Sequence record: MW822008.1
Reading direction: 5' to 3' (one strand)
DNA length: 64,000 nt
DNA from: Escherichia phage BF17
The first letter of the stretch is position 1; each line of letters begins with the position of its first letter. The notes beneath the pieces are model-generated. The model ran no database searches. It saw only the letters and a program-made list of their open reading frames with translations, and was not told where the DNA came from. Below, piece by piece: positions 14,240-40,681 of the stretch. The position numbers were made by a program, and so were the translations under genes.

Positions 14240-14254
14240 TATAGTAAAAACAAT

Positions 14255-14287
14255 GGGGATTATTTAATCCCCTTTTATTGTTTTTTA
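14255..14287 (+). terminator. rho-independent terminator
   Basis: ggggattatttaatcccc hairpin then T-run. Confidence 0.65.
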
Positions 14288-14338
14288 AAAGTAGTAAATA
14301 GTATTATATGTGCTAGTTTTTTAAGGATAATATAAAAC

Positions 14339-15582: not shown

Positions 15583-16397
15583 GAATTTTAAACATGCTTA
15601 AATCTCTCCATGAGACTACCAAACTTCACCAAGACGACAAGTATCATCGTAGTACAACTAAAGATTTGGCATGTAGAATGTATATGAGACGATTCGAAAT
15701 TTCTCGAATCGGTAAAGGATGGGACGATATCAAACGTGAAGATATCGACCCTGATGCGGTATTCAAAGCATACATGGCACGAAAAGTTTTTATCAATGAG
15801 AAAACTTTTTATATTGACAGCGATAAAGAACTTGAAGTAAAATTTACGAAAGGCTTGTGGAAGATTTGGTGCTTAGAGACGTTCGGTGAAGTGTTACCAG
15901 AGCCACCAGTACCAGAAACTTACAAAGATCTAAAAGCTATATTTGACAATGAACATATACATACAAATTACTCACTATATGAAACTGTTTCCGAAGCGGT
16001 ATTTTATGGAGAGTTGAACGGTCATAACAAGTACTTTGATAGTATGGTGAGTTTTGATTTATTCTGTCATCTCCCTGGTATCTCTAGTTGGACATGTGAC
16101 CAGCATCGAGCTAGTAAGGTAGACAAGCGTAAGTTCTCTGCCCAACGCTTTATGCAAGCTGCTATGGGTATGTACAAATTGGATTATCTTGGGTGTCCAG
16201 AACCATATAAACATTTTTGGAAAGAACGTGCACAAAAGTGCATGAACTATTGTATAATTCGTTTAATGGATTCATACATTTTAAAATTCAGAAATGCAAC
16301 TGTGTATGATATGCCGGAACCACCAAAGAATGAAAAGTACCCACCAGTAAAAACATTTGTGTGGTACAAGGACAAGAGTAACAAAAGGATGCACTAA
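15579..16397 (+). CDS. hypothetical protein
   Basis: ORF track; ATGA overlap with upstream gene. Confidence 0.5.
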   Translation: MRILNMLKSLHETTKLHQDDKYHRSTTKDLACRMYMRRFEISRIGKGWDDIKREDIDPDAVFKAYMARKVFINEKTFYIDSDKELEVKFTKGLWKIWCLETFGEVLPEPPVPETYKDLKAIFDNEHIHTNYSLYETVSEAVFYGELNGHNKYFDSMVSFDLFCHLPGISSWTCDQHRASKVDKRKFSAQRFMQAAMGMYKLDYLGCPEPYKHFWKERAQKCMNYCIIRLMDSYILKFRNATVYDMPEPPKNEKYPPVKTFVWYKDKSNKRMH

Positions 16398-16414
16398 GGT
16401 GCGTCCTTTTTTTC
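16386..16414 (+). terminator. rho-independent terminator overlapping stop codon
   Basis: aggatgcactaaggtgcgtcct hairpin plus TTTTTTT. Confidence 0.6.
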
Positions 16415-16427
16415 TTTAAAAAATGGT

Positions 16428-16456
16428 TTGACAAATACATCGTGTGTATGTAGAAT
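16428..16456 (+). promoter_or_regulatory. sigma70-like early promoter
   Basis: ttgaca 16428-16433, 17-nt spacer, tagaat 16451-16456. Confidence 0.6.
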
Positions 16457-16496
16457 GTACGTATCGTATCAATTTTAATTAATTAAGAGGTTAGTA

Positions 16497-17624
16497 ATGA
16501 AAGGAAAATATTTTTTCATTGACAACGGCAAAGAAGTTGAAATCAAAGAATTTAACTTCAACTACGTTCTTAACTCACTGTTAAAACAGTATGATCGTTC
16601 ATCGAATCGAAAATATATGTATACAATTGTTGTGGACAGAACATACGATTCATTGGGAAATCCACATTTTGACACCCGTTCACTTTCACTCGACGAGATT
16701 TATTTTGATAATCGCCGTTTGAAGGTAATGGATTTGATGAAAGATAAAATTCATTTCTCAAATGTGAGAATCGTTCCAGATCTCCCAATTCCTCCGTTAG
16801 AGAAGGAGTACCGAGACTGGAAGGAAGGTAAACTTCGTCCAAACATGGCAGCAGTAGCTACTTCACCAGACGTTCCGGCTCCTATTGTTCTTAAGAAGAA
16901 ACCTATCGATCCTGAATGTGATATGGTTGCTGACATTGAACGTTGGATGGAATTCCCAGATACAATTAAAAAAGATTCGGTAAAAGTACTGGATTGGTAT
17001 GTTAACCTCCCAGTATGTGCACAAGAAGTTGGTATGAAGATTCAGAAGATCTCTGAGCGACAATTGGATTTGAACGCAGCACTACAACAACACAGTGATT
17101 ATATCCGTTTATTAATGGGTAACCTTACAACAGCACTGGAAAAGTTATTCCCGTTGAAGCCTACCTTTGCACAGAAGTTGTTTGGGAAAGCAGATATCAA
17201 AGTTCAACCATCTGATTTACCAAAAGTAATGAAAGCATTGAATGAGGCCGTGAAGTACGATACTAACAAGTTTAGTGGTATTACGTCTTTATTCACTGAA
17301 ATTCGTGATGAAGTTCGTGAAATCAAAAATGAACTTGAGTATGGTAAGATTGGGTGTGAATATGCAATTCGTCGTTTGGAAGATCCATTTGAATATGAAC
17401 TAACGCTTGAACGTATTATGAAAATGGGTATTTCAACAGCAATGACTGAAACTAGTATTGTTGGTGTTAGTAAGCAGTATCAGATTGATATGAGCCGAAT
17501 GATTGACATTCAAACTATCACTATCCCATTGATTATAGGTCGTTTACAAGCTCAAACTGGTAAAGCAGTCGATGAAGATACTGCCAATATCATTCGCAAC
17601 CTAGCGTATGGAAATAAAGAGTAA
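16497..17624 (+). CDS. hypothetical protein (375 aa)
   Basis: ORF track; RBS aagagg. Confidence 0.55.
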   Translation: MKGKYFFIDNGKEVEIKEFNFNYVLNSLLKQYDRSSNRKYMYTIVVDRTYDSLGNPHFDTRSLSLDEIYFDNRRLKVMDLMKDKIHFSNVRIVPDLPIPPLEKEYRDWKEGKLRPNMAAVATSPDVPAPIVLKKKPIDPECDMVADIERWMEFPDTIKKDSVKVLDWYVNLPVCAQEVGMKIQKISERQLDLNAALQQHSDYIRLLMGNLTTALEKLFPLKPTFAQKLFGKADIKVQPSDLPKVMKALNEAVKYDTNKFSGITSLFTEIRDEVREIKNELEYGKIGCEYAIRRLEDPFEYELTLERIMKMGISTAMTETSIVGVSKQYQIDMSRMIDIQTITIPLIIGRLQAQTGKAVDEDTANIIRNLAYGNKE

Positions 17625-17633
17625 AAAAAGTAG

Positions 17634-17662
17634 TTGACAGTACTGAGTGTTGCCTGTAGAAT
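17634..17662 (+). promoter_or_regulatory. sigma70-like early promoter with CAGTACTG palindrome
   Basis: ttgaca 17634-17639, tagaat 17657-17662; lies inside ORF-track start 17634, so real start is downstream. Confidence 0.6.
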
Positions 17663-17708
17663 GTTTATCACTGAGCAACACTATCTTAAATTAACTGAGG
17701 AATACACA

Positions 17709-18851
17709 ATGTCCGAGAAAGAAATCAATCCGAAAAAAGCAACAGTTAAACAAGCCAAAGCAACCAAAACTGCCAAACGTACTACCAAAACAGCAGCACA
17801 CACAATTGACGCAACTGATATCTTCGAACAACAGTCCAAGTCACTTCCAGTACTGAAAGATACTAAAGGCAACAGTATGGCGTTAACTGTGCAGAATATT
17901 AATACCATCGGGACCACTGCTGGGGCAGGTGTAGGACGTTTGGCTGATGAAATCATGTCAAAAGTTAACGTCACTGATGATAATACTGAATTCGGTAAGT
18001 CTATTACTACTATCTTGACATTGACACGTGCAGTTGATATTGATAGTCTACAGGATGATAAATCAATCGTAGGCTGGGTCAAAAAACTCTTTGTTAATGC
18101 TAAACAGAAAGTTGGCGATCAGTACAAAAACAGTAAAGAACAAATTGATGAAATCATGAACACTCTTCAGGTTGGTATTAACCGCCAGCATGGGGAATGT
18201 GCATGGCTAGACACTGCTTACAACGAAAACAAAAACTATCTCTTTGAACTGCGTGATACGTTAGTTGAGTTGGAAGAAGTTACCAAAGCACAAGATGCTG
18301 AATTGGTAGCAATGCAAGCGAACCCTGACGTTGATTCTTTTGCAATCCAGGAGCAAAAGATGATTTGTGAAGCTCTTTCTAAACAGGAAGATAAGATTCG
18401 TCGTCTTATCATGATGTGTGAACTGAGCGGTCCTCGCCTGATGAGTATGAAGAAAGTAAACCTCAACACTGTTTCTAAGTTTGAGGATTTGAAATCAGTT
18501 GTTATTCCAGCATGGAAATCACAATTGGCTGAACAGTTGATTTCCGAACGTCAACGTAAAGACAATGAGTTGGGTAATCTGATTGACAATGAAACTAACC
18601 GTTTACTCGAAGTAAACTCTAAAATGGTAGCAACTAACATGTTGGATGCTGCTAAGGCAAATAATCGTGGTATCGTGGATATTAAAACATTGCGTAATGT
18701 ACACAAAACAATGATTGATAGCATCGAAGCAGTACTGATTGAAGAGAAGAAAGGTAAAGAAGAGCGTGAGCGAGCAAAGATTGAAATCGCAAAACTCTCT
18801 CATGAACTTGAAGATACTCTTCGTGAAATTGCTGAAAAAGCTAACAAGTAA
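17709..18851 (+). CDS. hypothetical coiled-coil protein
   Basis: ATG 17709 with RBS gagg downstream of the promoter; ORF-track start 17634 rejected. Confidence 0.55.
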   Translation: MSEKEINPKKATVKQAKATKTAKRTTKTAAHTIDATDIFEQQSKSLPVLKDTKGNSMALTVQNINTIGTTAGAGVGRLADEIMSKVNVTDDNTEFGKSITTILTLTRAVDIDSLQDDKSIVGWVKKLFVNAKQKVGDQYKNSKEQIDEIMNTLQVGINRQHGECAWLDTAYNENKNYLFELRDTLVELEEVTKAQDAELVAMQANPDVDSFAIQEQKMICEALSKQEDKIRRLIMMCELSGPRLMSMKKVNLNTVSKFEDLKSVVIPAWKSQLAEQLISERQRKDNELGNLIDNETNRLLEVNSKMVATNMLDAAKANNRGIVDIKTLRNVHKTMIDSIEAVLIEEKKGKEERERAKIEIAKLSHELEDTLREIAEKANK

Positions 18852-18854
18852 TAG

Positions 18855-18905
18855 TTGACACAAGAGTGCGTTTTCAATATAATGTTCTTATTGAAACGCA
18901 CTCTT
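18855..18905 (+). promoter_or_regulatory. promoter embedded in stem-loop (PeSL-like: promoter and terminator hairpin combined)
   Basis: ttgaca 18855-18860 and tataat 18878-18883 inside inverted repeat agagtgcgttttcaa...ttgaaacgcactct followed by T-run. Confidence 0.55.
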
Positions 18906-18932
18906 TTTTAATATACGGATAAGGAACGAAAT

Positions 18933-19622
18933 ATGAAACGTCGTCATGTTAGTGTTGATATTGAAGCTCTTGGAACTCCTGAAAACTCTGGTTATGATAT
19001 TATTATTCCAAATTATGCAGCAGTAGTTGTTCCAAGTAAACCTGAACATGATATCAGACAATTTGTATATGTTAAGTTACCATACCAAGCACAAGTCAAC
19101 GCTGGGCTGAAATCAGATGCAGGTGCAATGGATTTCTGGATGAATACATGTCAGAAGGAATATCCTAATGCATATGCTGAAGTTGCCAGTACTATGGCAC
19201 TAGTTGCACCAGAATTGTACGGTCCTAATGGTAAATCCAAACAAATCTTTACTTCTAATGGTATTGTCGATTTCTGGAAAGATATCCGTTTTGATTGTTA
19301 TGGTAAAGAGGTTGAACATTCAATTTGGGGAAATGGCTGCAACTTCGACTGTAGTATTTTACAAGCTAATCACTTAAAACTATTGAATGTTGGTGATTTG
19401 TGGAAATATGATGCTCCTGAAAACGCACGAACCCTGAAGCGTTTATTGAATGAAGAAGCTCGCACCGAAATGGATGAGATTGTGTCAGTGCAGTTAGCTA
19501 AATTCGTGAAGTATGTAGAAAAATGTGGTATTAATGGTTTGGAATTACATCACCCTCTGTATGATGCAGCACGTGAAGCTATCCAAATCTCCTATTGTCT
19601 CAATAAACTTAAACTGGACTAA
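18933..19622 (+). CDS. dexA: DnaQ-like 3'-5' exonuclease (T4 DexA-like)
   Basis: Exo motifs VSVDIEALGT, WGNGCNFDCSIL, HHPLYDAAR; size about 229 aa. Confidence 0.5.
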   Translation: MKRRHVSVDIEALGTPENSGYDIIIPNYAAVVVPSKPEHDIRQFVYVKLPYQAQVNAGLKSDAGAMDFWMNTCQKEYPNAYAEVASTMALVAPELYGPNGKSKQIFTSNGIVDFWKDIRFDCYGKEVEHSIWGNGCNFDCSILQANHLKLLNVGDLWKYDAPENARTLKRLLNEEARTEMDEIVSVQLAKFVKYVEKCGINGLELHHPLYDAAREAIQISYCLNKLKLD

Positions 19623-19625
19623 TAC

Positions 19626-20720
19626 ATGAATTTTATTATTCTGTTGATTCCTTCACTTATCGTTGTATTTGTTATGAAATACATGTATGATAAGCATATC
19701 AGTACTAAAGAACTGTTGATTCATATTGGTTGTTGTATAGTTGGTGCTGCTCTTGTGCTTGGTATCTCATATGCAATCAACTACAGCCAATTGTACGATG
19801 TAGAGATTCTAAATGGGCAGGTAACATCCAAATATAATCACAAGGAGTTTTGTACACAATCAAGCTCATGTAAGCATTACACGTGGCACGAGAAATGCAG
19901 AACTCGTTATGATAGTAAGGGGAAATCCCATCGTGAATGTGAGTCCTATAAGGTATTTGATTATTCATACGAAGTTGACTGGTATGTAAAAAGTACTGTA
20001 GGGAAGTTTGAGATTGAGCGAGTAAACCGTCAGGGTACAATGACCCCTCCACGCTGGCAACAGGTTAACATTGGGGATTATGCTGCCGCAGAAAGTTCTT
20101 ATATTAACTATCTGTTCGCTGATAAAAACTCATTGTTCAGTCCTGATGAATTACATGAAATGTATGATGAGAAATATCTTAGTACTTTACCAGAATACCC
20201 AAGTGTGGTAGACTATTATAAAACACACCATGTAATCAACACTACTAATTATAATGTAGATGGTTATGATGAGTATCTGCGTGAAGAACTAAAAACTATG
20301 GGTGCACGTAAACAAGTCAACATCCAAGTTTTGGTTTATGATTATAAAAACGTAGATTTTGTTGAGGCAACACTCGCTTCGTGGCGTGGTGGTAAGAAGA
20401 ATGATGTTATTATGTTCTTTGGAATTGATAATGATGGGAAGATTGTTAAATTTGATAGCACTTCCTTTGCACAAGGCATGAAGAACGAAGAACTACATGC
20501 TAAGATGCGAATGGATGCATTAAATGAAAAATTAACTCTTGACTTGTTGAGCAAAGAAGTGCATAATATTGACACAAAGTTTGAAAGACTCTCTAATAAA
20601 GAGTTCGAGTACTTGTCTGTAAAAATGGAACCACGTAAAGATGTTCTCATCGGTGCTTCTATTTTGTTACTGATTGTATCTATTTTCATTGGCCTTTATA
20701 TGAGGGATAACGAGTTATGA
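19626..20720 (+). CDS. membrane protein, N- and C-terminal TM helices
   Basis: Hydrophobic stretches at both termini. Confidence 0.5.
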   Translation: MNFIILLIPSLIVVFVMKYMYDKHISTKELLIHIGCCIVGAALVLGISYAINYSQLYDVEILNGQVTSKYNHKEFCTQSSSCKHYTWHEKCRTRYDSKGKSHRECESYKVFDYSYEVDWYVKSTVGKFEIERVNRQGTMTPPRWQQVNIGDYAAAESSYINYLFADKNSLFSPDELHEMYDEKYLSTLPEYPSVVDYYKTHHVINTTNYNVDGYDEYLREELKTMGARKQVNIQVLVYDYKNVDFVEATLASWRGGKKNDVIMFFGIDNDGKIVKFDSTSFAQGMKNEELHAKMRMDALNEKLTLDLLSKEVHNIDTKFERLSNKEFEYLSVKMEPRKDVLIGASILLLIVSIFIGLYMRDNEL

Positions 20721-21271
20721 ATGGTAAAATTATTGCATTGATTGGTGTTGTTGTTGTATTCGGTCTTATGGCAATTGGTTCAGTTAGTATGTATGTAGAT
20801 GCACACGACCGTGCTGTTGAATTTGAAGGTAATATTAAAAAGTACTATGATGCATCAGAAAGTCAACTAAGTAAATACACTCTTGTCATTCAAGAAAAAG
20901 TACAAGTTTCTGATAAGTATAAGGATGCATTGAAAGAAACCATCGAAACATACTTTAAAGGTCGTGAAGGTGTTGACCAGAAGTTTGTGATGTCACAGAT
21001 TCAACAACAGGTTCCTAATCTCGATCCTAAGATTTATCAAGAACTTATGGTAACTATCGAGTCAGGACGTACACAGTTCAACAATCTTCAGAAAATGAAA
21101 ATTGACCAGTGTACTGATTATGCTAAGTTCCGTAAAGGTTTCTGGAACTCCAAAATTCTTGATACTAACACATTCCCAAGTGAAAATATTGAACATTTAT
21201 GTACAGTAGTTTCTGATACACGCACTAAGAAAGCAATGGATACTGGTATCCAAGAAGTAATTAAACTATAA
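20717..21271 (+). CDS. membrane-anchored hypothetical protein
   Basis: N-terminal TM IIALIGVVVVFGLMAIGSV; ATGA overlap. Confidence 0.5.
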   Translation: MNGKIIALIGVVVVFGLMAIGSVSMYVDAHDRAVEFEGNIKKYYDASESQLSKYTLVIQEKVQVSDKYKDALKETIETYFKGREGVDQKFVMSQIQQQVPNLDPKIYQELMVTIESGRTQFNNLQKMKIDQCTDYAKFRKGFWNSKILDTNTFPSENIEHLCTVVSDTRTKKAMDTGIQEVIKL

Positions 21272-21280
21272 TCTAAATCT

Positions 21281-21305
21281 GGGAGTACATTGTACTCCCA
21301 TTTTC
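21281..21305 (+). terminator. rho-independent terminator
   Basis: gggagtacattgtactccc hairpin plus TTTT. Confidence 0.7.
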
Positions 21306-21318
21306 TATAGGATTTATT

Positions 21319-21906
21319 ATGTTTTTAAAAAATACTTATGAATTAATTAAAATGCTTCAAAATATGAATTTCGGTGGTCTATTCCCGTATCACTCTGAGG
21401 ATAAAACTCATCGTTTAGTTTTGAAATTGGATGAAACTGGGCGTATTGCATCACTAAGAACGGCTGTTCCAAATATGGATCAAGTAATTATGCCAACAAC
21501 TCCGAATTCAGGAACTGCTGTTAATACACCACAAACATATAACTCAAACTACCAACACCCACAGATGTATACGATTAGTACTCCATCTATTACAAGAGTT
21601 GCTTGTATTGTTACTATAAAAGTATCAAAAGACTATCGTGATTTAATATCAGTTGAATGGTCGGAACTAACATCAGCATTTGCAAACAATGGGCTTGTTG
21701 TAACAAATGCTGGTATAGCAGTCAATGCAAAAGAAGGACAACAGATAATGAGTGCGTTGTATCTTAGCAATGGTTATGTTATCATTAATGGGAAGTTGTA
21801 TTGTAACACCGAACCAGAAGCACTCACTGAAGATTTGATTAGTGAAAAAGAATATAGTCTTCTTGAAATTATGAATTTAAAAAAGGTATATGAAAACTGT
21901 GATTAG
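21319..21906 (+). CDS. hypothetical protein
   Basis: ORF track. Confidence 0.5.
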   Translation: MFLKNTYELIKMLQNMNFGGLFPYHSEDKTHRLVLKLDETGRIASLRTAVPNMDQVIMPTTPNSGTAVNTPQTYNSNYQHPQMYTISTPSITRVACIVTIKVSKDYRDLISVEWSELTSAFANNGLVVTNAGIAVNAKEGQQIMSALYLSNGYVIINGKLYCNTEPEALTEDLISEKEYSLLEIMNLKKVYENCD

Positions 21907-22474
21907 ATTTGATCAAGACGATTTGCCATTTATCCAAGAACTAGAAGAACTAGTTACGGTAACGATGCAAGAAATTAGTTCATGGGATATAACAGTTTTT
22001 AGGAACGTATATGATAAAATCACAAACTTTAAAACTGTTAATATTGAGGTAAAACACAATAACTTTTACTTAACAAAAGAATTCATTCTAAAAAGACCAG
22101 GAACGATCCAACCGAAACGTAATTTGTCTTTTGCTCAAGTTCTCGGTGCTAAGACAAGGAATGATGATGATTTGAATGAATCAATATATTCGTATATTAA
22201 AGAGCGTTCTCCTGATGTTAAGAAGAGATATTACCTTTGTGTTACATTTGATGAACAAGGAAAACTAAATGCGTATTCTATAAATTCATCAGCACACGTC
22301 CCATTACATTCAACGTCAATTGGTGATAAACAATTACTAATCGATTCATCAACATGGCATAATAGGGAAAATTTTGCCACTGAAACTTTTCAGTACTCGG
22401 TATCTGAACCAAAGTCTCCATTTGATTTTGTGTTTGTTAATAACATCCTTTTACGTTTTGGGGTAGGAGTCTAA
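21890..22474 (+). CDS. hypothetical protein
   Basis: ORF track. Confidence 0.45.
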   Translation: MKTVIRFDQDDLPFIQELEELVTVTMQEISSWDITVFRNVYDKITNFKTVNIEVKHNNFYLTKEFILKRPGTIQPKRNLSFAQVLGAKTRNDDDLNESIYSYIKERSPDVKKRYYLCVTFDEQGKLNAYSINSSAHVPLHSTSIGDKQLLIDSSTWHNRENFATETFQYSVSEPKSPFDFVFVNNILLRFGVGV

Positions 22475-22476
22475 AT

Positions 22477-22830
22477 ATGCTAATTTATTTGAGTGTTCTT
22501 GTTATTTCATTACTGGTATCATTAGCAGTACTGAAAGTTGTTGCTATCGGTCGTAGTAAAATTGATAGTACTGAAACCAGTTCTGTGTTGGACCTAATTA
22601 TGGATCATCCAAAGATCTGTACTGGGATTGTTGTGTTTGTTCTTCTTATAGGAACATTCATTGTACGTACACATTTATACAATATGTATGACTGTAGTGT
22701 TCGTTCAATTTCTCAGGGTGTTGAAACCGACTATAGCTGGTACTATGAGAAATGTCGCTTCAAAAACCAGCATGGTATTTGGGTTGATTTTGATAAACTG
22801 CGTGGCACACCATCTGGTGAAGAAGAGTAA
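22477..22830 (+). CDS. small membrane protein
   Basis: Two hydrophobic helices. Confidence 0.5.
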   Translation: MLIYLSVLVISLLVSLAVLKVVAIGRSKIDSTETSSVLDLIMDHPKICTGIVVFVLLIGTFIVRTHLYNMYDCSVRSISQGVETDYSWYYEKCRFKNQHGIWVDFDKLRGTPSGEEE

Positions 22831-22832
22831 TT

Positions 22833-23324
22833 ATGTTTGAATTTCCTGAAGAGTCATTTAACTATATTGACCCTACTGATGATGGATACAGACATATTAA
22901 TATCTATAGTAAAGCTAAGACTAAGTTAGGTAGGGATCTATCTAACTTTTCTTCACATAGTTTTACCTTAGAACCATATGGTTGGTTCCCATCGGTAGAA
23001 ACTTTTTATTTTTGGTTTTTAACAGGCCAGAAACATGATGATCTTAGAAAAGTGTCGGGTGCTGCTGCAAAAGCAGCGGCGAACAAGTATATGCACGACC
23101 GTATTGAAATGACACCCGAATGCATTTCTTGTATACAGGATGCAATATGTGCTAAGATATTTCAAAACCCAGAACTTGCTGAACGATTGAGGAAAAGTAA
23201 GTTACCCTTCTATCATTACTATGTTTATGGTGGGAAGGTGGTTGATGTATCTGATGAACATGACTGGTTTGTTAAAACATTCGAAGATATAAGAATTGTT
23301 TTGAAGGAGAACCACAATGAGTAA
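22833..23324 (+). CDS. NADAR (DUF1768)-like protein, candidate ADP-ribose processing enzyme
   Basis: LSNFSSHSF, FPSVETFY, KIFQNPELAERLRKS resemble the YbiA/NADAR family. Confidence 0.4.
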   Translation: MFEFPEESFNYIDPTDDGYRHINIYSKAKTKLGRDLSNFSSHSFTLEPYGWFPSVETFYFWFLTGQKHDDLRKVSGAAAKAAANKYMHDRIEMTPECISCIQDAICAKIFQNPELAERLRKSKLPFYHYYVYGGKVVDVSDEHDWFVKTFEDIRIVLKENHNE

Positions 23325-23595
23325 ATGTTGGGTATGTTGTAAGCAATTCGATGAAGATTATATTATTTCTTTGGATGTATTACCACAACAATACATGATA
23401 TCTTCAGGGAAATATAAACTAGATACAGTTCCAACACCTAAGTATATGGGGATTTGTCCATTGTGTAATGGGAATGGTGTATCGAATGAAGTTGTTGCAT
23501 TCACAAATACACAAACTACTGATTGTGTCGCCGAATATATAAGAAAGAATCTGGCTTTTTTCACTAGGAGATTATATGAACGAGAGAATCTTTAA
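23317..23595 (+). CDS. zinc-ribbon small protein
   Basis: CWVCC ... CPLCNG cysteine pairs. Confidence 0.45.
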   Translation: MSKCWVCCKQFDEDYIISLDVLPQQYMISSGKYKLDTVPTPKYMGICPLCNGNGVSNEVVAFTNTQTTDCVAEYIRKNLAFFTRRLYERENL

Positions 23596-23812
23596 TTCAT
23601 ATGATATGGAAGATTTACTAATACCATCTGATAACAGTACTGTTAAAATGCAAATGTATTGGTTAGTAAAAGATGGCAAGGTATTCCAGCACAAAGTTAC
23701 AAAAGTATGGCAATGTAATAAAAACAAATCTATAGTTGATGCACTCGCAACTGCATTTCCTGGGGTAGAGGTTGTATTTTTACCATTTGCCTACATTAAG
23801 GAAATAAAATGA
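23576..23812 (+). CDS. hypothetical small protein
   Basis: ORF track. Confidence 0.45.
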   Translation: MNERIFNSYDMEDLLIPSDNSTVKMQMYWLVKDGKVFQHKVTKVWQCNKNKSIVDALATAFPGVEVVFLPFAYIKEIK

Positions 23813-23954
23813 AAAAACATGGACAATATTCGTAATACCTACTATAATGTTGTTATTGTCACTTACGGTCCCACAAGGAAATAAAATGAAAAAAACATTG
23901 ACAATATTCGTAATACCTACTATAATGTTGTTATTGTCACTTACGGTCCCGCAA
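23800..23954. repeat. tandem direct duplication (~77 bp x 2) carrying a promoter
   Basis: Unit ggaaataaaatgaaaaaacatggacaatattcgtaatacctactataatgttgttattgtcacttacggtccc repeated back-to-back with 2-3 differences. Confidence 0.8.
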
Positions 23955-24053
23955 GGGCATGTTGTGGCACTGAATGTAGTAGAAATTATTCTTCTTGTAA
24001 TTCACTGCATTGTATGTTACTATTATGTAAAATCGGATGATAAAAAAATATGA
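23886..24053 (+). CDS. small hydrophobic protein, start uncertain
   Basis: ORF-track 23847..24053 spans repeat junction; in-frame ATGs at 23886 and 23925. Confidence 0.3.
   Translation: MKKTLTIFVIPTIMLLLSLTVPQGHVVALNVVEIILLVIHCIVCYYYVKSDDKKI
23898..23926 (+). promoter_or_regulatory. sigma70-like promoter in second repeat copy
   Basis: ttgaca 23898-23903, tataat 23921-23926; first copy has degenerate -35 (tggaca). Confidence 0.5.
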
Positions 24054-24472
24054 AGTACTATCGAATTCGAGTTGGTGTAAGCTCTGGTTTTAGTAATTGG
24101 GTATATTATGATTTACCTGATAGCTATACCGTAGAAGATGTAATTGACTTATATTATGAAGAAGAGTCATGGGTATCCAGTACTGAAACACACAGTGTTG
24201 TGTGTGAAGAACTGAGTGCTGAAGATTACAAGCACTGTACCCAAGCAATGAAGTATTACAGTAAAGATGTGAAGATGTTATCTGAAAACGTTTTTCCTGT
24301 AAAAGAATGGGCAATTTTGCTTGCAAATCCTAACAAACCTGTTAGAATAGGTTATCCAAACAATCATATGGTTTATCGAATGAATGATAAACGTGAGCTA
24401 AGTTATCAGTATGATTACAGTGCTTCTAAGTTTGGAGTTCTAAAACAATTTATGAAGGCTTATCCAGTATGA
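24050..24472 (+). CDS. hypothetical protein
   Basis: ORF track; ATGA overlap. Confidence 0.5.
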   Translation: MKYYRIRVGVSSGFSNWVYYDLPDSYTVEDVIDLYYEEESWVSSTETHSVVCEELSAEDYKHCTQAMKYYSKDVKMLSENVFPVKEWAILLANPNKPVRIGYPNNHMVYRMNDKRELSYQYDYSASKFGVLKQFMKAYPV

Positions 24473-24804
24473 GCAAAGACAGCAAAGAATTTATAGTGCG
24501 TTGTAGTTGTGGCGATAATACGGAACATTGTGTTCACATTTCACAATTTGACTTGACACAAGAACATGGAGATGATAAACTTGGTCAATGTCTGGTGAGT
24601 ATGCGTTTGAATCCTTTCTTAAAATGGTACAAACGTGTATGGGTTGCATTGAAGTATATTTTCGGCGTAAACGACTTTCAATACAAAGAAGCAATGATTG
24701 ATGTTGACATTCTGAAAGAAGTTGTGTTACAATTAGAAGATACCCGCTCCGATGAGGTAAAGAAAGAAGAAAGAGATAAACGTACTGATGTGAAGGTTTT
24801 ATGA
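24469..24804 (+). CDS. hypothetical protein
   Basis: ORF track; ATGA overlap. Confidence 0.5.
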   Translation: MSKDSKEFIVRCSCGDNTEHCVHISQFDLTQEHGDDKLGQCLVSMRLNPFLKWYKRVWVALKYIFGVNDFQYKEAMIDVDILKEVVLQLEDTRSDEVKKEERDKRTDVKVL

Positions 24805-24995
24805 GTACTGAACTTTATGAAAAAAAGTACTGTACAAATTGTTCAACCGAGTATACAATACAGGGTATGTTGATTTGTACAATATGCCAATCAAAACAGG
24901 CTGCCACTTTTATCGTTGATGATAGATTTGGTGATTTAAAACAGTTTAAAGCAAACCGTAATCTTCGTAACTTTAGCAATCTATATAAGGAATAA
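24801..24995 (+). CDS. zinc-ribbon small protein
   Basis: CTNCS ... CTIC cysteine pairs. Confidence 0.45.
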   Translation: MSTELYEKKYCTNCSTEYTIQGMLICTICQSKQAATFIVDDRFGDLKQFKANRNLRNFSNLYKE

Positions 24996-24998
24996 CAC

Positions 24999-25427
24999 AT
25001 GAATATCGAACAAACTATCCGTAACCACTCTTTCTTCGCTGCTGAAACTGGTCGTGTAATCGAGAGCGTCAAAATTGAAGAACTGATGATTAACGTTAAA
25101 TATAAAGAACTGAATGATGAGATTAGCAGCACCATTTGTGCACTACGTGCTCCATTCCGTTCTGAAGCAGCTAAGAAACCTGCCTATGTACTGGCGATTG
25201 CATTGGGTTGTGTAGTGAAATTGGTCGTTGATGAAAATCAACTAAATATCAAAGTTGCTCCAACCAACGATGAAGAAAACATCGACCTGAACTTTGAAGG
25301 TAATCTGGCTGAAGACGTATTCTTCCAACAATCACTGGTTTATGATTTCCGTACTGTAACTCATGACCACATCAACTTTGTCAATGAGATGGTTGACATT
25401 GTAGCTGAATACGAAGCTTCCCTATAA
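24999..25427 (+). CDS. family-A paralog (C-terminal EE-x-FFQ-x-S module)
   Basis: C-terminal EDVFFQQSLVYD. Confidence 0.6.
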   Translation: MNIEQTIRNHSFFAAETGRVIESVKIEELMINVKYKELNDEISSTICALRAPFRSEAAKKPAYVLAIALGCVVKLVVDENQLNIKVAPTNDEENIDLNFEGNLAEDVFFQQSLVYDFRTVTHDHINFVNEMVDIVAEYEASL

Positions 25428-25440
25428 TTAGATTAACAAA

Positions 25441-25463
25441 AGCCTCCGTAATGGGGGCTTTTC
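25441..25463 (+). terminator. terminator-like hairpin
   Basis: agcctccgtaatgggggct then TTT. Confidence 0.45.
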
Positions 25464-25482
25464 CAACATAAGGATATGAATA

Positions 25483-26034
25483 ATGATTGACCAAATTAAA
25501 ATCCTAACTGAACAAATCACTGATTTTCTAGCAGATAAAGATGGATTCAGTACTGAAGTTAAAATGCATGGTGTTAGTCTCGATGTAACTGCACCAAATG
25601 GCGAAACAACCAATTATGATATGTATGAAATCCTACTTTATACATTGGCTGTTCGTAAACTTGGTAGTGATATTGAACTAAACATTAACAAAACCGAGAA
25701 CGGTGACCAAGTGTTTGCAATCAACACTGGTGCACAAATGGACGTGGTAGCTGAAATCAACAAGATCAACCAATCTTTTGTGGGTTTCAAGCATGATACA
25801 ATCCAATCTGTGTTCCTGGGTAAACAAACCGGAAACAGCCACTGTCCTTATTGTGTAATGACAACCTATAAGAATGGTAACTGGATGCGTCAGGATCTAG
25901 TACTTGCTGAAATGCTTTATGCAATCACACACGGCCTAGAACTTGAACTTGATGATAGCGTGTACTGTTTCAAGAAAATCCGTAAACTTTCTGGTGATAT
26001 ACAAGCTCAATTAAAAGAATTAAATGATAAATAA
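25483..26034 (+). CDS. hypothetical protein
   Basis: ORF track; RBS aaggat. Confidence 0.55.
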   Translation: MIDQIKILTEQITDFLADKDGFSTEVKMHGVSLDVTAPNGETTNYDMYEILLYTLAVRKLGSDIELNINKTENGDQVFAINTGAQMDVVAEINKINQSFVGFKHDTIQSVFLGKQTGNSHCPYCVMTTYKNGNWMRQDLVLAEMLYAITHGLELELDDSVYCFKKIRKLSGDIQAQLKELNDK

Positions 26035-26146
26035 TTATACCAGTAATGGTTAACATTATCATGTTACTTTCCTCCCTTACATAATAATGATGCGTTATTA
26101 TTTTATTGTATTATTCCCCTTTTTCGTACAAAATCTTTTTCGTACT

Positions 26147-26170
26147 GCCCCGACCTTCGGGGCATTTTTC
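26147..26170 (+). terminator. rho-independent terminator
   Basis: gccccgaccttcggggc plus TTTTT. Confidence 0.7.
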
Positions 26171-26191
26171 TTGTCTAAATTTTGAGGTTCT

Positions 26192-26587
26192 ATGAATAAT
26201 ACTATTGGTAGTACAATATCTAAACCACTCTCTTATTACCTTGAAAAATTCAGAAGTACAAATGGTAAAAAATTTAATGGCATATACCAATTCTCACATA
26301 AAGAATATATCACAGTTGATTGTTATTCAAATAAACTTATGTACGTAGATGATACTGAATACTGTATGAAATTGTCATTGGATGTAGAATTAGATAAGTT
26401 AACATTTATTGAATATACATCCAAAAGAACATCATTTCTTGGGAAATGTAATCGAAAAGTATATAAAAATATTTCAATGTACTTAAATGAAGATTACCAC
26501 TTCCAACAAACAACGATTGAAGATGTTCTATTCAGTACTGAAGAATTGAAAGAACTATATTATTGGTATAAGAAATTTACAACTTGA
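26192..26587 (+). CDS. family-A paralog
   Basis: C-terminal NEDYHFQQTTIED. Confidence 0.55.
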   Translation: MNNTIGSTISKPLSYYLEKFRSTNGKKFNGIYQFSHKEYITVDCYSNKLMYVDDTEYCMKLSLDVELDKLTFIEYTSKRTSFLGKCNRKVYKNISMYLNEDYHFQQTTIEDVLFSTEELKELYYWYKKFTT

Positions 26588-26642
26588 CATTATCGTGGAT
26601 TTATCCTACACTGTAAGATAATGATGAATAGAGGATAAATTT

Positions 26643-27053
26643 ATGAGTTTAGATTTACACAATGAACTAAAATATTATTTCGATTTGGATATATCACATT
26701 TGAACCAACACGTCAATTATATGACTAGTACTATTTGGTGGTCTGATGAGTTTGATGAACCAAAAATCCAACTTTGTGGTGATTTGTCCGTTTTGAGGTT
26801 GTATGCCCTTGATTCGGAAATGAATATCAAGATCACATACATACCATACACAAACAAACTTATTGTAAACACCCTAAACCCAGTTACAGTATTGAAAATT
26901 TCTGATTTGGACACGATACAGTCAGATGAATCACTATTCCAACGTTCTTTGATTGATGATATGGGTGGTATTTTATATGAAGATATTGTACAATTGAAGA
27001 AGATGTATAGTGAATTGTTAGAAATTAAAAACACAGTAATTGTGGGGAGTTGA
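26643..27053 (+). CDS. family-A paralog
   Basis: C-terminal DESLFQRSLIDD; RBS gagga. Confidence 0.6.
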   Translation: MSLDLHNELKYYFDLDISHLNQHVNYMTSTIWWSDEFDEPKIQLCGDLSVLRLYALDSEMNIKITYIPYTNKLIVNTLNPVTVLKISDLDTIQSDESLFQRSLIDDMGGILYEDIVQLKKMYSELLEIKNTVIVGS

Positions 27054-27054
27054 T

Positions 27055-27459
27055 ATGGTAAGTTTACTTGATATTGATAATACCAGTCTAGTACTGGCAA
27101 AAAAAGGTGTAATTCCCAATTCTACAAAAATTGATTATGCAGTTATTGAAACAAATATTGGAAATATCTGGTATGACTCCGAAAGGGATATTGTGATTAG
27201 CTGCGTAGACAGTGACCGTGCTGAGTGTTGTAGGGTTGGTCATGACGGGCAATTTATTTTCGAATTCCGTTACTGGAAAGATGCTAAATTCCATCATGAG
27301 CATGTTTCAATTACAGGTGTGTATTGCACCGAAGAATCGTTCTTCATGGATAGTACTGTTAATGATTTTGGTTCAGTTACATTTGAGTACTATAAAAAAG
27401 TATACAACGTATCCAGAGAAGTAATGCGAATCATCAGAAATGCTGAGGGCCAAGATTAA
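27055..27459 (+). CDS. family-A paralog
   Basis: C-terminal TEESFFMDSTVND; ATG 27055 with RBS ggggag preferred over ORF-track TTG 27040. Confidence 0.55.
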   Translation: MVSLLDIDNTSLVLAKKGVIPNSTKIDYAVIETNIGNIWYDSERDIVISCVDSDRAECCRVGHDGQFIFEFRYWKDAKFHHEHVSITGVYCTEESFFMDSTVNDFGSVTFEYYKKVYNVSREVMRIIRNAEGQD

Positions 27460-27460
27460 C

Positions 27461-27835
27461 ATGACTACTATATATGACATTCTAGGTGACTTGAATAAAA
27501 ATATAGATAATGATTTTGTTATTGTTGGAACTACACAAAATATAATCCATCTTCCATTGGGTACACCAGATAGGTTAATTTTTAATATATACGGAAAAAC
27601 ACTGACATACCTACACAATGGTATGGTTATATTGGTACTTGATATTAAAGAAAATACAATACGATATGCATATGACTTCAACGATTATTGGTCAAGAACC
27701 CATAGTATTGATATTGAGGAAGATGAACTATTTCAATTGTCGTTAATCGAGAAAAATGTAATAGGAGTTACCGAAATTGGCATTGTTAAAAAAGCATTAG
27801 AATATGTAAATAGCAAATTAAATGGTGAGCTATGA
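27461..27835 (+). CDS. family-A paralog
   Basis: C-terminal EEDELFQLSLIEK; ATG 27461 just after upstream stop preferred over 27440. Confidence 0.55.
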   Translation: MTTIYDILGDLNKNIDNDFVIVGTTQNIIHLPLGTPDRLIFNIYGKTLTYLHNGMVILVLDIKENTIRYAYDFNDYWSRTHSIDIEEDELFQLSLIEKNVIGVTEIGIVKKALEYVNSKLNGEL

Positions 27836-28287
27836 TGAAAATTGATGAAATAAAAAATCATTTTGAAATTGCATTGTCTTGTAAATTTGATGGCTCTTAT
27901 GTTCCTGATCCAGAAGAGATAATTAGAATTTCCACATCGTTTTCGGAAGAGTACAATGTTCTTATTGAGAAAACATATGACAGCACTGAACTCGCATTTT
28001 ACAATAAGAATTCACGAACAACAACATTTATATTATTATATAACACAACATCGGATATAATAGAAATTATAACATGTAAAACAAGCAAAGATATACATTA
28101 TGAGACTATCTCAAATGTGAGTTATTGCTCAACTGAAGAAGGATACTTTCAGGAATCTCTTGTTAAAAATTTAACAGTTAGTTATTCTGATTTAAGCACT
28201 ATAATCAATTGTGTTGAAAAGCTAAATGATTTCGTTCTATCTATGTTTGATATCACAGAGCAAAACCCGAAGGTAATCAAATGCTAA
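27832..28287 (+). CDS. family-A paralog
   Basis: C-terminal TEEGYFQESLVKN. Confidence 0.6.
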   Translation: MMKIDEIKNHFEIALSCKFDGSYVPDPEEIIRISTSFSEEYNVLIEKTYDSTELAFYNKNSRTTTFILLYNTTSDIIEIITCKTSKDIHYETISNVSYCSTEEGYFQESLVKNLTVSYSDLSTIINCVEKLNDFVLSMFDITEQNPKVIKC

Positions 28288-28736
28288 ATCCAGGACAGTT
28301 TTTTCATTTACTTGGTATTACACCTATACCGGATTTAATCAGTGAAGCGAATCAATATCGTGATATAGGAATTGTATCTATGGAATACGATTCACCTGAC
28401 TTTAAATGTTACGTAACATATGATTTGGTAGCCTATGAGTCAGAAACTGAGATAAAAAAACCATCATACATTTTTGTGTTCATATATAATGATTATAGTG
28501 GTGATCTACTCAATGATGTTCATATTGACACATTTGAAATATGTGATAATATTATAACAGATGATTCATCATGTACATTTGATTTATCAGAAAACAGTAC
28601 TGAAGAGGCACTTTTTCAGTTGAGCACTGTTAGTGACACTGTACTAACTCTTGATGACATTGAGAAATTTAAAGAACAGCTTGACGCAGTACGTGAGATG
28701 TTCTATAATCATTATCCAGAAATCGAGTTCAATTAA
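28281..28736 (+). CDS. family-A paralog
   Basis: C-terminal TEEALFQLSTVSD. Confidence 0.6.
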   Translation: MLNPGQFFHLLGITPIPDLISEANQYRDIGIVSMEYDSPDFKCYVTYDLVAYESETEIKKPSYIFVFIYNDYSGDLLNDVHIDTFEICDNIITDDSSCTFDLSENSTEEALFQLSTVSDTVLTLDDIEKFKEQLDAVREMFYNHYPEIEFN

Positions 28737-28750
28737 CTAAAGGTATCAAA

Positions 28751-29011
28751 ATGACTAAAGTAGTTCGTAAACGCCACATGATGAACATGGATGAATTTCG
28801 CACCTTTGACAAATACCGTACTATGTTTCGTATGCTGTCACAGGGCCGTCCAATCGTCATTGTAACGGAGAATTACATGTCACCTGAGATGATGTTCGGT
28901 AATTATGAAAAGGTCTTCATGTTGTACGTGAAGCGTGAATTGCTAACGATTAAGACCTTAGCTGAAGCTACAGATGAAGATATGGATGGTGATAATACAT
29001 TTACCATGTGA
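28751..29011 (+). CDS. hypothetical protein
   Basis: ORF track. Confidence 0.5.
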   Translation: MTKVVRKRHMMNMDEFRTFDKYRTMFRMLSQGRPIVIVTENYMSPEMMFGNYEKVFMLYVKRELLTIKTLAEATDEDMDGDNTFTM

Positions 29012-29089
29012 GGAAATATATGGCAGAAAAACCAAAAGAACCATTGGACCGTGATGATGATTTTTACGACGAACGATATGGGGAATCAG

Positions 29090-29341
29090 ATGAGTGAACA
29101 TCGTGCAGTACTTAAAAAGATTTTAAATGAACTTGGTGATGAGTTTAATGTTACTGAAGAAGAATATCAATGTTGGAAGAAGGATTTTGAACTCCTTGCT
29201 GAGTATGATAAAGTCTTCAATATGATTGGTGTCATTAGCCAGTACTTACTTGGTGGTGGTCGAGCCAGTGCTTCAATTCTTGCATCTGCGATCATCTGTA
29301 CTTCTCGATGGTGCGATGAAAAAAGTCTGGAAGATTTCTAA
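29090..29341 (+). CDS. hypothetical protein
   Basis: ATG 29090 with RBS gggga preferred over ORF-track 29051. Confidence 0.45.
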   Translation: MSEHRAVLKKILNELGDEFNVTEEEYQCWKKDFELLAEYDKVFNMIGVISQYLLGGGRASASILASAIICTSRWCDEKSLEDF

Positions 29342-29393
29342 ATAAGATGCTATAATGTATTATAGTACCTTAACAATATAAAAAGGATTTTAT

Positions 29394-30254
29394 ATGAAAC
29401 CTATCAGAGTACTGTCACTTTTTAATGGAATGAGCGTTGGATATATGGCATTGGCAGATGCAGGTATTCCAGTTGAAAAATATTACTCATCTGAAATTGA
29501 CAAGTACGCAATTGCTGAATCTTCCGAGAATTTTCCTGATATTATCCAGTTAGGTGATGTGACTAAGTGGAAAGAATGGGATATTGAGTGGGATAAGATA
29601 GATTTACTCATGGGAGGATTCCCATGTCAAGCCTGGTCTGTTGCTGGTAAGCAAGGTGGCTTGAATGATATACGTGGACAGTTATTTTTGGTTATGGTTG
29701 ACATTTTTGAGCACATCAAAAGTGTAAATCCAAACTTGCAATTTCTGTTCGAGAATGTTAAAATGAAGGAAGATTTCAAAGAATACATTAATAGTATTTT
29801 AGGAATCACACCAGTACTGATAAATTCCCAGCATTATACGCCTCACTTCAGGCAGAGATACTACTGGTGCAGTACTGATAAGCTTTTTATACCACCTGCA
29901 TTATCAAATGCCCCTAAACTTCAAGATATCATTGAAGATGGTTGGTACACTGACAGAACCGCTTCGTACTGTATAGATGCTAACTATTTTAAGGGTGGTG
30001 ATTGTAACCAGTACTTTAATAAATCAAGACGACAGTTGGTGTTTCGTGACCCAACGATTAATCGTCAATATCTATTGGAGAATGGTAAAAGAAATATTGA
30101 CTATAGACACTTAAGTGTAGTAGAATGTTGTAAATTACAGGGTATTCCTGTAGATTTCTTTAAAGTGTCTAGTAAGACACAAGCATACAAAATGCTTGGG
30201 AATGGATGGACTATGCCAGTTATATCACACTTACTAAGAGAGATATTCTTTTGA
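29394..30254 (+). CDS. DNA (cytosine-5)-methyltransferase, compact
   Basis: Motif I FNGMSVG, motif IV GGFPCQAWSVAGK, motif VI FLFENV, motif VIII-like FRQRYYW. Confidence 0.65.
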   Translation: MKPIRVLSLFNGMSVGYMALADAGIPVEKYYSSEIDKYAIAESSENFPDIIQLGDVTKWKEWDIEWDKIDLLMGGFPCQAWSVAGKQGGLNDIRGQLFLVMVDIFEHIKSVNPNLQFLFENVKMKEDFKEYINSILGITPVLINSQHYTPHFRQRYYWCSTDKLFIPPALSNAPKLQDIIEDGWYTDRTASYCIDANYFKGGDCNQYFNKSRRQLVFRDPTINRQYLLENGKRNIDYRHLSVVECCKLQGIPVDFFKVSSKTQAYKMLGNGWTMPVISHLLREIFF

Positions 30255-30256
30255 AC

Positions 30257-30736
30257 ATGAAGAACTACCCCACCTATACTGAACGTGTAATGAAATTTCA
30301 ACGTCAGTCATCAAAGGAAGAATTAGAATTTAATTTGTACTATCCTAATATTGGTGATGAGGTATTCTATTGTTCTCATACAAAGAATGGAACTTTACTT
30401 AAATCTGGTAAAGGTATTATTGTTGATATGATTAGAACTTTCAAAGGTAAACTTAATGTAATGTACAAAGTACAAGATTCAAGTACTGAGTGCATTCATG
30501 AAGTGATGCATAATATACCTGCATATCCAAAGGATTTTGTTGAGCTAATATCTCGAAGGGAGAAACCTATGTTTTATTGTGGTTATGACAAACTAACCAA
30601 ACAAATTATTCCTAATACTATGGGAAAATTTAAAAGTGATGTTAAAACTGAACTTAATAAGAAATTAGGTTCATCATGGGAAACTGAAAACGAATTCATC
30701 GAAATTCGTTTGATTGAAGTTACTATACTCGATTAA
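30257..30736 (+). CDS. hypothetical protein
   Basis: ATG 30257 right after MTase stop preferred over ORF-track 30206. Confidence 0.5.
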   Translation: MKNYPTYTERVMKFQRQSSKEELEFNLYYPNIGDEVFYCSHTKNGTLLKSGKGIIVDMIRTFKGKLNVMYKVQDSSTECIHEVMHNIPAYPKDFVELISRREKPMFYCGYDKLTKQIIPNTMGKFKSDVKTELNKKLGSSWETENEFIEIRLIEVTILD

Positions 30737-30780
30737 TTACAGATCCACGCTATGCGTGGATTTTTCATAGGTGCATATAT

Positions 30781-31293
30781 ATGACAGTTCCTTATGTTAA
30801 AATTATTAATAATATCCTTGATTCGTGGGAAGATGTTATTACTGGTAAAAAGAACCCAATGCCAGTACACGCACTAACCGGAAGACTACAATTCAGAATG
30901 TCAAACCAAACTGAAACTTTTAATAATCATGATGTTCACATTACTATAACACCTGTACGTATTGTAATTAAAAAAAATCAAGATGATGAATTGACATTAT
31001 CTATTGGTAGTGATAAAATCATTTTAAGTAATTTATCCGAAGAAGAATTCTTTCAACGAAGTACTATCATCGACATGAAAGATTTCACATATGAATCATT
31101 GGTTGAACTCAATACACGTTTCAACGATATTCAGGAACGATTGCGACCAATCCTCCGCAAAGAAGAAGAAGCCTGGAATGAAAGTGTGAGAAAGATGCAA
31201 GAAATGTTGAAAGAAAATATTAACAATCTGGGTAAAGCTACAATGGAATTTGGTAAAACTTTAAAACTGAACTTTTCAAAGGATCGTAAATGA
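30781..31293 (+). CDS. family-A paralog
   Basis: SEEEFFQRSTIID. Confidence 0.6.
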   Translation: MTVPYVKIINNILDSWEDVITGKKNPMPVHALTGRLQFRMSNQTETFNNHDVHITITPVRIVIKKNQDDELTLSIGSDKIILSNLSEEEFFQRSTIIDMKDFTYESLVELNTRFNDIQERLRPILRKEEEAWNESVRKMQEMLKENINNLGKATMEFGKTLKLNFSKDRK

Positions 31294-31745
31294 AAATTGA
31301 TAATTTGATTCATGTCTTAGGGACTTTACATAAAATATTATTACATCTTAACGAGATGAATAAACTAGGTTATAATGTCCATAATGTATTTGAACCTACA
31401 TTTAAATATAACTCAATCACTGGAGATGGTAATTACATAATCGAATATACATATGAAACCGATCCAGACTTCTATCCTCTTACGTTGAGAATTTATCCAA
31501 CAAATCCGATAGGAATTCACGACATATCATCAATTTCACTTGATCCAGATGGTGAAACGAGTATTGAATACAATAATGATTCAAAACCAGAATTTTACAT
31601 TGATGACATTAAAAAGTTGTTCAATGATGAATATGTTTTCCAACAAAGTACTGTGCATGATGTTGGTAGTACTACTGGGCAATTTTGGAATACATGTTAT
31701 TATCATATGATTGAAATTTGTAAATTACTAAAAGGTGTTGAATAA
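31290..31745 (+). CDS. family-A paralog
   Basis: NDEYVFQQSTVHD. Confidence 0.6.
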   Translation: MKIDNLIHVLGTLHKILLHLNEMNKLGYNVHNVFEPTFKYNSITGDGNYIIEYTYETDPDFYPLTLRIYPTNPIGIHDISSISLDPDGETSIEYNNDSKPEFYIDDIKKLFNDEYVFQQSTVHDVGSTTGQFWNTCYYHMIEICKLLKGVE

Positions 31746-40084: not shown

Positions 40085-40170
<86 letters not shown>

Positions 40171-40187
40171 CAATTAAAGGTTAAACC

Positions 40188-40348
<161 letters not shown>

Positions 40349-40352
<4 letters not shown>

Positions 40353-40513: not shown

Positions 40514-40681
<168 letters not shown>

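Follow-up and report, generated by a model that had tools for sequence, protein, structure and literature searches.

An array of two tandem repeats in the window (the whole 64-kb stretch of DNA analysed here) is an inherited duplication of a gene start that contains a putative conserved intragenic promoter. The duplication would have formed by exchange at an AAGG microhomology and given two predicted promoters in tandem, and we put the probability of this reading as a whole at about 0.6. The structure of the array, its inheritance, its allele states and the conservation of the promoter sequence are all shown by the sequences.

Structure of the repeat

Tandem Repeats Finder (TRF) reported positions 23798..23956 as a tandem repeat with a period of 78, 2.1 copies, 96% matches and a score of 295. 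A 77-nt repeat at 96% identity lies far beyond chance, and no second near-identical tandem pair of this kind occurred in the 64 kb, the array at 23798-23952 being the only one. The two copies are adjacent and share the same orientation. The four bases AAGG stand at all three boundaries, at the start of copy 1 (23798), at the junction (23875) and after copy 2 (23953), and related genomes show a single-copy state at the same locus. An earlier reading made from this sequence only (the sequence-only reading) had described a head-to-tail duplication of a promoter-containing unit of ~77 bp, and this was borne out by TRF and by alignment of the copies (77 and 78 nt). It had also counted three differences between them, and pairwise alignment returned exactly three. 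Copy 1 has a run of six A at 23812-23817 and copy 2 one of seven at 23889-23895; TGGACA in copy 1 (23820-25) is TTGACA in copy 2 (23898-903); and CCA (23871-73) is replaced by CCG (23949-51, the G being 23951). The unit with A7 measures 78 nt, or 26 codons, and hence preserves the reading frame.

Table 1. Features in and around the tandem repeat (positions in the window).
Feature	Position	Strand	Description and source
Upstream gene	23576..23812	+	78 aa, homologue of 121Q gp75; ORF list; annotated in all relatives; phrog_13902
Copy 1	23798..23874	+	77 nt; SD AAGGA, ATG 23809, A6, TGGACA-17-TATAAT, ...CCCAC; TRF and alignments of copies and relatives
Remnant of small ORF start	23809..23835	+	8 codons, MKKHGQYS-stop; read from sequence
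A6 homopolymer	23812..23817	+	A-tract just upstream of the P1 -35; alignments
Predicted promoter P1	23820..23848	+	TGGACA-17-TATAAT, 11/12 sigma-70 match; predicted start ~23855
Copy 2	23875..23952	+	78 nt; SD AAGGA 23875-79, ATG 23886, A7, TTGACA-17-TATAAT, ...CCCGC; TRF and alignments
Intact small ORF	23886..24053	+	55 aa (MKKTLTIFVIPTIMLLLSLTVPQGHVVALNVVEIILLVIHCIVCYYYVKSDDKKI), homologue of 121Q gp76, two hydrophobic segments
Predicted promoter P2	23898..23926	+	TTGACA-17-TATAAT, 12/12 match; in codons 5-14 of the small ORF; predicted start ~23933
Third AAGG	23953..23956	+	closes the array; sequence; TRF end 23956
Downstream gene	24050..24472	+	140 aa, homologue of 121Q gp77; ORF list; phrog_15599

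Genes in and around the unit

The repeat unit is the beginning of a 55-aa gene for a two-helix membrane protein, from the SD AAGGA through the ATG to codon 22. It had been taken to span the 3' end of the upstream gene together with a promoter. The promoter does lie inside the unit, while the upstream gene contributes merely its final 15 nt (AAGGAAATAAAATGA). These 15 nt are really the SD and ATG of the small ORF, and the remainder of the unit is the first 22 codons. The TGA of the upstream gene overlaps the ATG at 23809 (an ATGA overlap). The single-copy phages WPEC3, vB_Ec-M-J, Turkey3 and ph0011 are annotated with a 78-aa ORF followed, through the ATGA overlap, by a 55-aa ORF. The small protein reads MKKT[W/L]TIFVIPTIMLLLSLTVPQG HVVALNVVEIILLVIHCIVCYYYV KSDDKKI, and the duplicated part encodes its first hydrophobic segment. 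At the other end of the small ORF, its stop codon overlaps the ATG of the downstream gene, which is the first that could be expressed from P2.

The claim that the duplication changes the frame and start of the small ORF did not hold. Copy 2 preserves the 55-aa ORF intact, together with an SD and ATG of its own, and the product of this ORF equals the protein of the single-copy relatives except for W5L; the frameshift sits in the copy-1 remnant. A tblastn search of the phage collection found the 55-aa gene in all 36 Asteriusvirus-type records matched and gave no match outside records of this type. The small ORF had no PHROG family, and PHROGs and Pfam assigned no function to it or to the neighbouring genes. 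A match to RseC_MucC (PF04246) scored 16.9 bits, below the gathering cut-off of 24.4, and was confined to the two-helix membrane hairpin. Membership in the RseC/MucC family was rejected, as this sub-threshold match reflects the hairpin alone.

Distribution of the array

The sequence belongs to Asteriusvirus, the 121Q/PBECO4-like jumbo coliphages with genomes of ~350-385 kb. Over 1.2 kb around the repeat it was 99.9% identical to EC.P1, and ten records matched at 91-99.9%. Of eleven aligned genomes, five carried the array: the window itself, EC.P1 from China, fEgEco12 from Finland, WPEC5 from Thailand and Ecwhy_1, a freshwater phage whose record names no country. An ENA metagenome contig (ERZ27268735, k141_30662) contains an array identical to that of the window, and one short NCBI contig (2.7 kb) was added as a carrier from the protein clusters by its 68-aa ORF, which is typical of the A6 array. 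Six close relatives (WPEC3, vB_Ec-M-J, Turkey3, TH47, CMSTMSU and ph0011) have a single copy, as do 121Q, the more distant A4, UE-S1, JNE01 and Turkey5, and two Logan contigs. Comparison with related isolates, which the sequence-only reading had proposed as a check, thus found the same array in four phages and a metagenome contig and showed that it is not specific to one isolate.

The same reading had named the alternative of an assembly artefact, in which the true genome has one copy. Assembly of short tandem repeats can go wrong, and one of the carrier records (Ecwhy_1) is flagged UNVERIFIED. However, the array recurs in four phages that came from different countries and laboratories, with the copy-specific bases shared bar a few private substitutions, and also in the metagenome contig, whose name k141 presumably denotes a MEGAHIT k-mer longer than the repeat unit. 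The copies moreover differ at three positions, and errors of collapse or expansion do not create such differences. An artefact is scarcely credible in the face of these independent carriers, which effectively exclude it. The duplication is real, heritable and segregating in the Asteriusvirus population.

Within that population the duplication is the minority state, with 7 records (the window, four phages, the ENA contig and the NCBI contig) against ~95 calls of single-copy type, in which a 55-aa gene call is not equivalent to copy number, as WPEC5 carries the array yet is annotated with a 55-aa ORF. Nothing shows that the duplication is favoured. An exact search specific to the junction returned nothing from IMG/VR, the JGI metagenomes and the GTDB genomes. 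A control pattern common to all close relatives was also without a match in IMG/VR, so the absence there is uninformative on the frequency of the duplication.

Alleles and origin of the array

The -35 hexamer of copy 1 had been called degenerate. In the alignment, TGGACA and CCA are the bases of the close single-copy relatives, and each intact copy has A7 (the small gene of CMSTMSU is disrupted by one-base indels). Copy 1 thus carries the majority single-copy bases at these two sites and has not decayed there. The bases of copy 2 were also found outside the array. A rarer single-copy allele with A7, TTGACA and CCG is present in the Logan contigs ERR2738180_1078 (22.8 kb) and ERR10615604_183 (91 kb), both long and unbranched, and the L-type 55-aa protein of this allele is annotated in phage BF17 (QXN76416.1, from the protein cluster). 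By cluster counts, the W-type form of the 55-aa protein occurs in ~95 contigs and the L-type in 4. Because TTGACA/CCG exists as a single-copy allele, the differences between the copies need not post-date the duplication. The idea that the Logan TTGACA contigs are collapsed repeats was rejected: the 31-mer running from the left flank through A7 into TTG was absent from the duplicated genomes seen (31 being what we take to be the k of the Logan assembly), and the contigs are unbranched over 22-91 kb.

All carriers have TTGACA and CCG in copy 2, and positions 23899 and 23951 were the sole sites perfectly linked to the duplication in a 6.5-kb stretch. This linkage of two copy-2 sites in every carrier points to a single origin. 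The flanking SNPs were mosaic, the nearest neighbour shifting between segments across 15 kb, and the carriers formed no clade; because the flanks are recombinant, the order of events cannot be read from them. These ~99.5%-identical isolates thus form a freely recombining population. Signs of exchange were also seen at the array itself, namely a 68-aa array variant with H25Y downstream (P0016), the copy-1 change T20M of Ecwhy_1, which is also found as a single-copy allele (P0011), and the presence of TTGACA in both copies of fEgEco12.

Mosaic SNP patterns among ~99.5%-identical phages extended over ~15300-32500 of the window, where the nearest neighbour changes every few kb. The many incompatible informative sites in this region indicate frequent homologous recombination among co-circulating Asteriusvirus strains.

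The array itself probably originated by an illegitimate exchange at the 4-nt AAGG. The earlier suggestion of a slippage or recombination event named the right class of mechanism, given this microhomology at the boundaries. The most economical route would be an unequal exchange in which the common TGGACA/CCA allele supplied what is now copy 1 and the rarer TTGACA/CCG allele what is now copy 2; at AAGG, between co-infecting alleles, it would make the array in one step. Slippage during replication, with a subsequent exchange with the rarer allele or a collapse to it, would fit equally well. The alternative that the rare single-copy allele is a collapsed array also fits, because recovery of an in-frame gene from an A6 array needs a crossover within the first ~20 nt, which leaves the copy-2 bases. 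Copy 1 would later have lost an A (A7 to A6), leaving the upstream partial copy as a dead end of eight codons, and only the normal 55-aa protein would then be made, from the SD and ATG of copy 2.

The frameshifted first copy

The ATG of copy 1 opens an eight-codon dead end because A6 replaces A7. The run is A7 in copy 2, in every intact single-copy allele read and in copy 1 of Ecwhy_1. Among the array records, copy 1 has A6 in six and A7 in this one. In Ecwhy_1 the same ATG opens an in-frame ORF of 81 aa in which the first helix is doubled. The extra A in its copy 1 is the sole private indel of Ecwhy_1 in ~16 kb, so this record is not generally error-ridden. From these states we infer that the change from A7 to A6 came after the duplication and abolished the doubled-helix protein.

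The A-run might instead act as a homopolymer switch: DNA slippage, or a -1 ribosomal frameshift on A-AAA-AAC, would toggle the product between the 55-aa protein and an 81-aa form whose N-terminal helix is duplicated. The records include both states (A6 in six, A7 in Ecwhy_1 as its only private indel), and the duplication measures exactly 26 codons, which places the A7 state in frame. However, 6-7 A is short for frequent slippage, the copy-2 start yields the 55-aa protein in both states, and the lone A7 record, marked UNVERIFIED, could be a sequencing error. The predicted RNA fold of the array was no better than that of shuffles (z = -0.84), leaving no stimulatory structure after the A-run, and Rfam gave no match in 22500-25000. 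Of the features of a programmed -1 frameshift, the A-run was present, without a downstream structure or an Rfam match, and the extended (81-aa) frame is confined to the duplicated haplotype. Support for a programmed frameshift or for a phase switch at the A-run is poor, and we regard the toggle as very unlikely. An RNA element at the array was rejected on the same fold and Rfam results.

The putative conserved intragenic promoter

We scanned the window for TTGACA/TATAAT with spacers of 16-18 nt and at most one mismatch. The scan returned 40 sites on the + strand and 0 on the - strand. Perfect sites numbered 11 against ~0.1 expected, an estimate from base composition. With up to two mismatches there were 50 matches against 25.6 expected, and no shuffle reached 50. 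About half of the 40 sites end 18-68 nt upstream of a start codon. At 14 of the 38 sites outside the array, the 16 nt before the -35 include a run of at least four A, against a background of 12% (p ~9e-5). In the array, the A6 run of P1 and the A7 run of P2 both end 2 nt before the -35, as an UP-like element would. For CBB, a related jumbo phage, a cluster of RpoD-like promoters preceded by UP-like elements was reported from an early region of small ORFs (PMC5259590).

Nearly all long ORFs of the window lie on the + strand, and the window is probably an early region transcribed by the host polymerase.

The promoter sequence inside the small gene was conserved beyond the array. TATAAT and the 17-nt spacing were invariant in nine lineages, over a protein identity of 53-100%. 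Codon 12 varies among them (ACT, ATT, GCT, GTT and CTT, encoding T, I, A, V and L), yet it ends in T in all nine. Ile13 is encoded by ATA in all nine lineages, while ATA makes up just 14% of the Ile codons in the window. Part of the conservation of the -10 could stem from the conserved Ile-Met. The -35 was conserved in some lineages only: TTGACA is perfect in the divergent A4, JNE01 and Turkey5, and the hexamer is weak in 121Q (TGGAAA) and UE-S1 (TGGATT). We conclude from these patterns that codons 5-14 of the small gene contain a putative conserved early promoter of the sigma-70 type.

Proposed regulatory consequence

In carriers of the array, host RNA polymerase would meet two promoters in tandem at a distance of 78 nt. 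Where there is a single copy, the predicted start of the promoter falls inside the small gene, so that the promoter would serve only the genes from 24050 onward, and the small gene itself would need both transcription from upstream and coupling to the 78-aa gene through ATGA. In a two-copy phage, P2 would keep this role inside the gene, serving downstream genes only. The -10 of P1 ends 38 nt before the intact ATG at 23886. P1 would therefore stand 38 nt upstream of the intact SD and ATG, which is the main promoter-to-start arrangement in this genome. The small gene would thus gain a promoter of its own and lose its translational coupling through ATGA to the upstream gene. A transcript for the small gene itself would be expected, together with two serial promoters for the downstream genes. 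Promoter activity, an effect on expression and a selective value are all steps that we infer from sequence.

The array could also be a neutral scar, a real product of slippage or recombination that drifts and recombines without regulatory effect, its hexamers being by-products of coding or irrelevant amid read-through transcription. The duplication is indeed a minority haplotype, and 121Q and UE-S1 retain the gene despite a poor -35. Copy 1 is already decaying, being frameshifted and, in Ecwhy_1, holding private changes. Our search of the literature found no transcription start, reporter or expression data for Asteriusvirus. On the other side, conservation of the -10 and of the spacing extends to positions that are synonymous or variable in amino acid, and the consensus sites show a 40:0 strand bias and upstream A-tracts. 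Sites matching the consensus at 12/12 and 11/12 with 17-nt spacers are also expected to bind the E. coli RNA polymerase holoenzyme. We consider a neutral scar possible but doubtful, and prefer the reading of an inherited duplication that gave two tandem promoters.

An adaptive version of the preferred reading, a promoter capture by partial self-duplication in which a promoter whose place inside the small gene keeps it from ever expressing that gene was copied in front of the intact gene start, seems unlikely. Under promoter capture, the upstream one-base deletion would then have removed a harmful N-terminally doubled protein, and the TTGACA in the non-coding copy 1 of fEgEco12 would represent selection for promoter strength.

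If the two predicted promoters act as proposed, the array would be a small and clean natural case of a one-step change in the early-gene regulation of jumbo phages, in which a single 78-nt microhomology duplication doubles a promoter and repositions it relative to a gene. The one-copy state with the weaker -35 and the two-copy state exist as sequenced isolates, and the one-copy state with the consensus -35 is so far known only from Logan assemblies of sequencing runs and perhaps from phage BF17. Because all three states occur in sequenced material, the regulatory effect is testable, most directly for the two states available as isolates. Asteriusvirus is also shown to carry a predicted promoter conserved inside coding sequence; otherwise the event is an ordinary micro-evolutionary one.

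Comparison with known systems

The event belongs to an ordinary class, the microhomology-mediated tandem duplications of phage genomes. Duplications in the rII region of T4 are the classic short tandem duplications of this type in lytic phages. The array resembles them in its head-to-tail order and in the identity of a few bases at its bounds (AAGG here). Like them, it would arise or collapse by illegitimate and then homologous exchange and segregate in a recombining population. It differs from them in being very short (78 nt) and in covering a gene start inside which a promoter is predicted. It has also lasted long enough to turn up on several continents and to acquire a frameshift in one copy. 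Tandem promoters are likewise familiar from the P1-P2 pairs of rRNA operons and from the early promoters A1, A2 and A3 of T7. As in those systems, the predicted sigma-70 promoters of the array stand in series within ~100 nt and face the same direction and the same genes, whereas the pair described here came from a recent duplication, is polymorphic and is known from sequence alone.

The promoters of the Rak2-like jumbo phage CBB share with those of the array a TTGACA/TATAAT consensus after an A-rich element and a place in a block of short hypothetical ORFs on one strand, regarded as early (PMC5259590). The CBB promoters were predicted upstream of genes (PMC5259590), whereas the putative promoter described here lies inside coding sequence, is conserved there across the genus and has been doubled.

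In T4-type phages, rearrangements are driven by promoter-early stem-loop cassettes, or PeSLs (Arbiol et al. 2010, PMC2839356). Like the array, PeSLs are strong sigma-70-like early promoters scattered among small non-essential ORFs and are linked to rearrangement in plastic early regions. However, a PeSL combines a promoter with a terminator stem-loop and serves as an exchange site between distant cassettes, whereas the unit of the array is without a stem-loop and its exchange lay at AAGG, not within promoter homology. No terminator-like site was found in or next to the unit, and the fold z was -0.84. The identity of the unit as a PeSL was rejected, since it is without a stem-loop, is a copy of its neighbour and has its exchange point at AAGG.

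The insertion of a mobile, PeSL-like promoter cassette, in place of a local duplication, was also considered. Repeated promoter cassettes do occur elsewhere in the window (identical at 40683 and 41104, related at 41474 and 42235), as does a terminator followed by a promoter at 16383-16456, and the part that PeSLs play in T4-type rearrangements (PMC2839356) lends the idea a precedent. The unit nevertheless copies its adjacent sequence, including the SD, the ATG and 22 codons, and has no other match in the window. Neither a stem-loop nor a terminator lies in it, and the single-copy relatives already have the promoter at the same place. An inserted cassette is highly improbable, and a local duplication at AAGG remains the preferred reading.

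Other features of the window

At 40169-40650, three tandem units of 161 nt share 76-81% identity. Each unit has a separate start (ATGACACATGAAGA(A/G)TGGATGAA) and codes for a small protein paralogous to the others (MTHEEWMNDINFRYSGIG...), and the three appear to represent an older tandem triplication of a gene in the early region that also contains the array. Shortly after it, a 43-nt promoter cassette (CTTGACTAAATAGTTCAGTACTGTATAATG...) recurs at 40683-40725, 41104-41146, 41474-41516 and 42235-42285, two of the four being identical and two related. The motif AGTACTG(T)ATAAT recurs at the predicted promoter sites 58377 and 62686, and these could be dispersed regulatory cassettes.

A terminator-like hairpin at 16383-16456, with a 12-bp stem and a T-run, is followed 18 nt on by TTGACA-17-TAGAAT, an arrangement that resembles the PeSLs of T4-type phages. 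One extra A at 17623 is the only private indel of the window in ~16 kb relative to ten relatives, and it sits in an A-run just upstream of a promoter-like site at 17634. In ph0011, the DNA cytosine methyltransferase is annotated at 1881 nt (14031-15911), against ~861 nt in the close relatives of the window (~29396-30256 in the window), which suggests an insertion or fusion. A perfect palindromic hairpin with a 9-bp stem (TGGGAGTACATTGTACTCCCA) at 21280-21300 gave a terminator-like score on both strands, and the transcription unit with the duplication may have its upstream end here.
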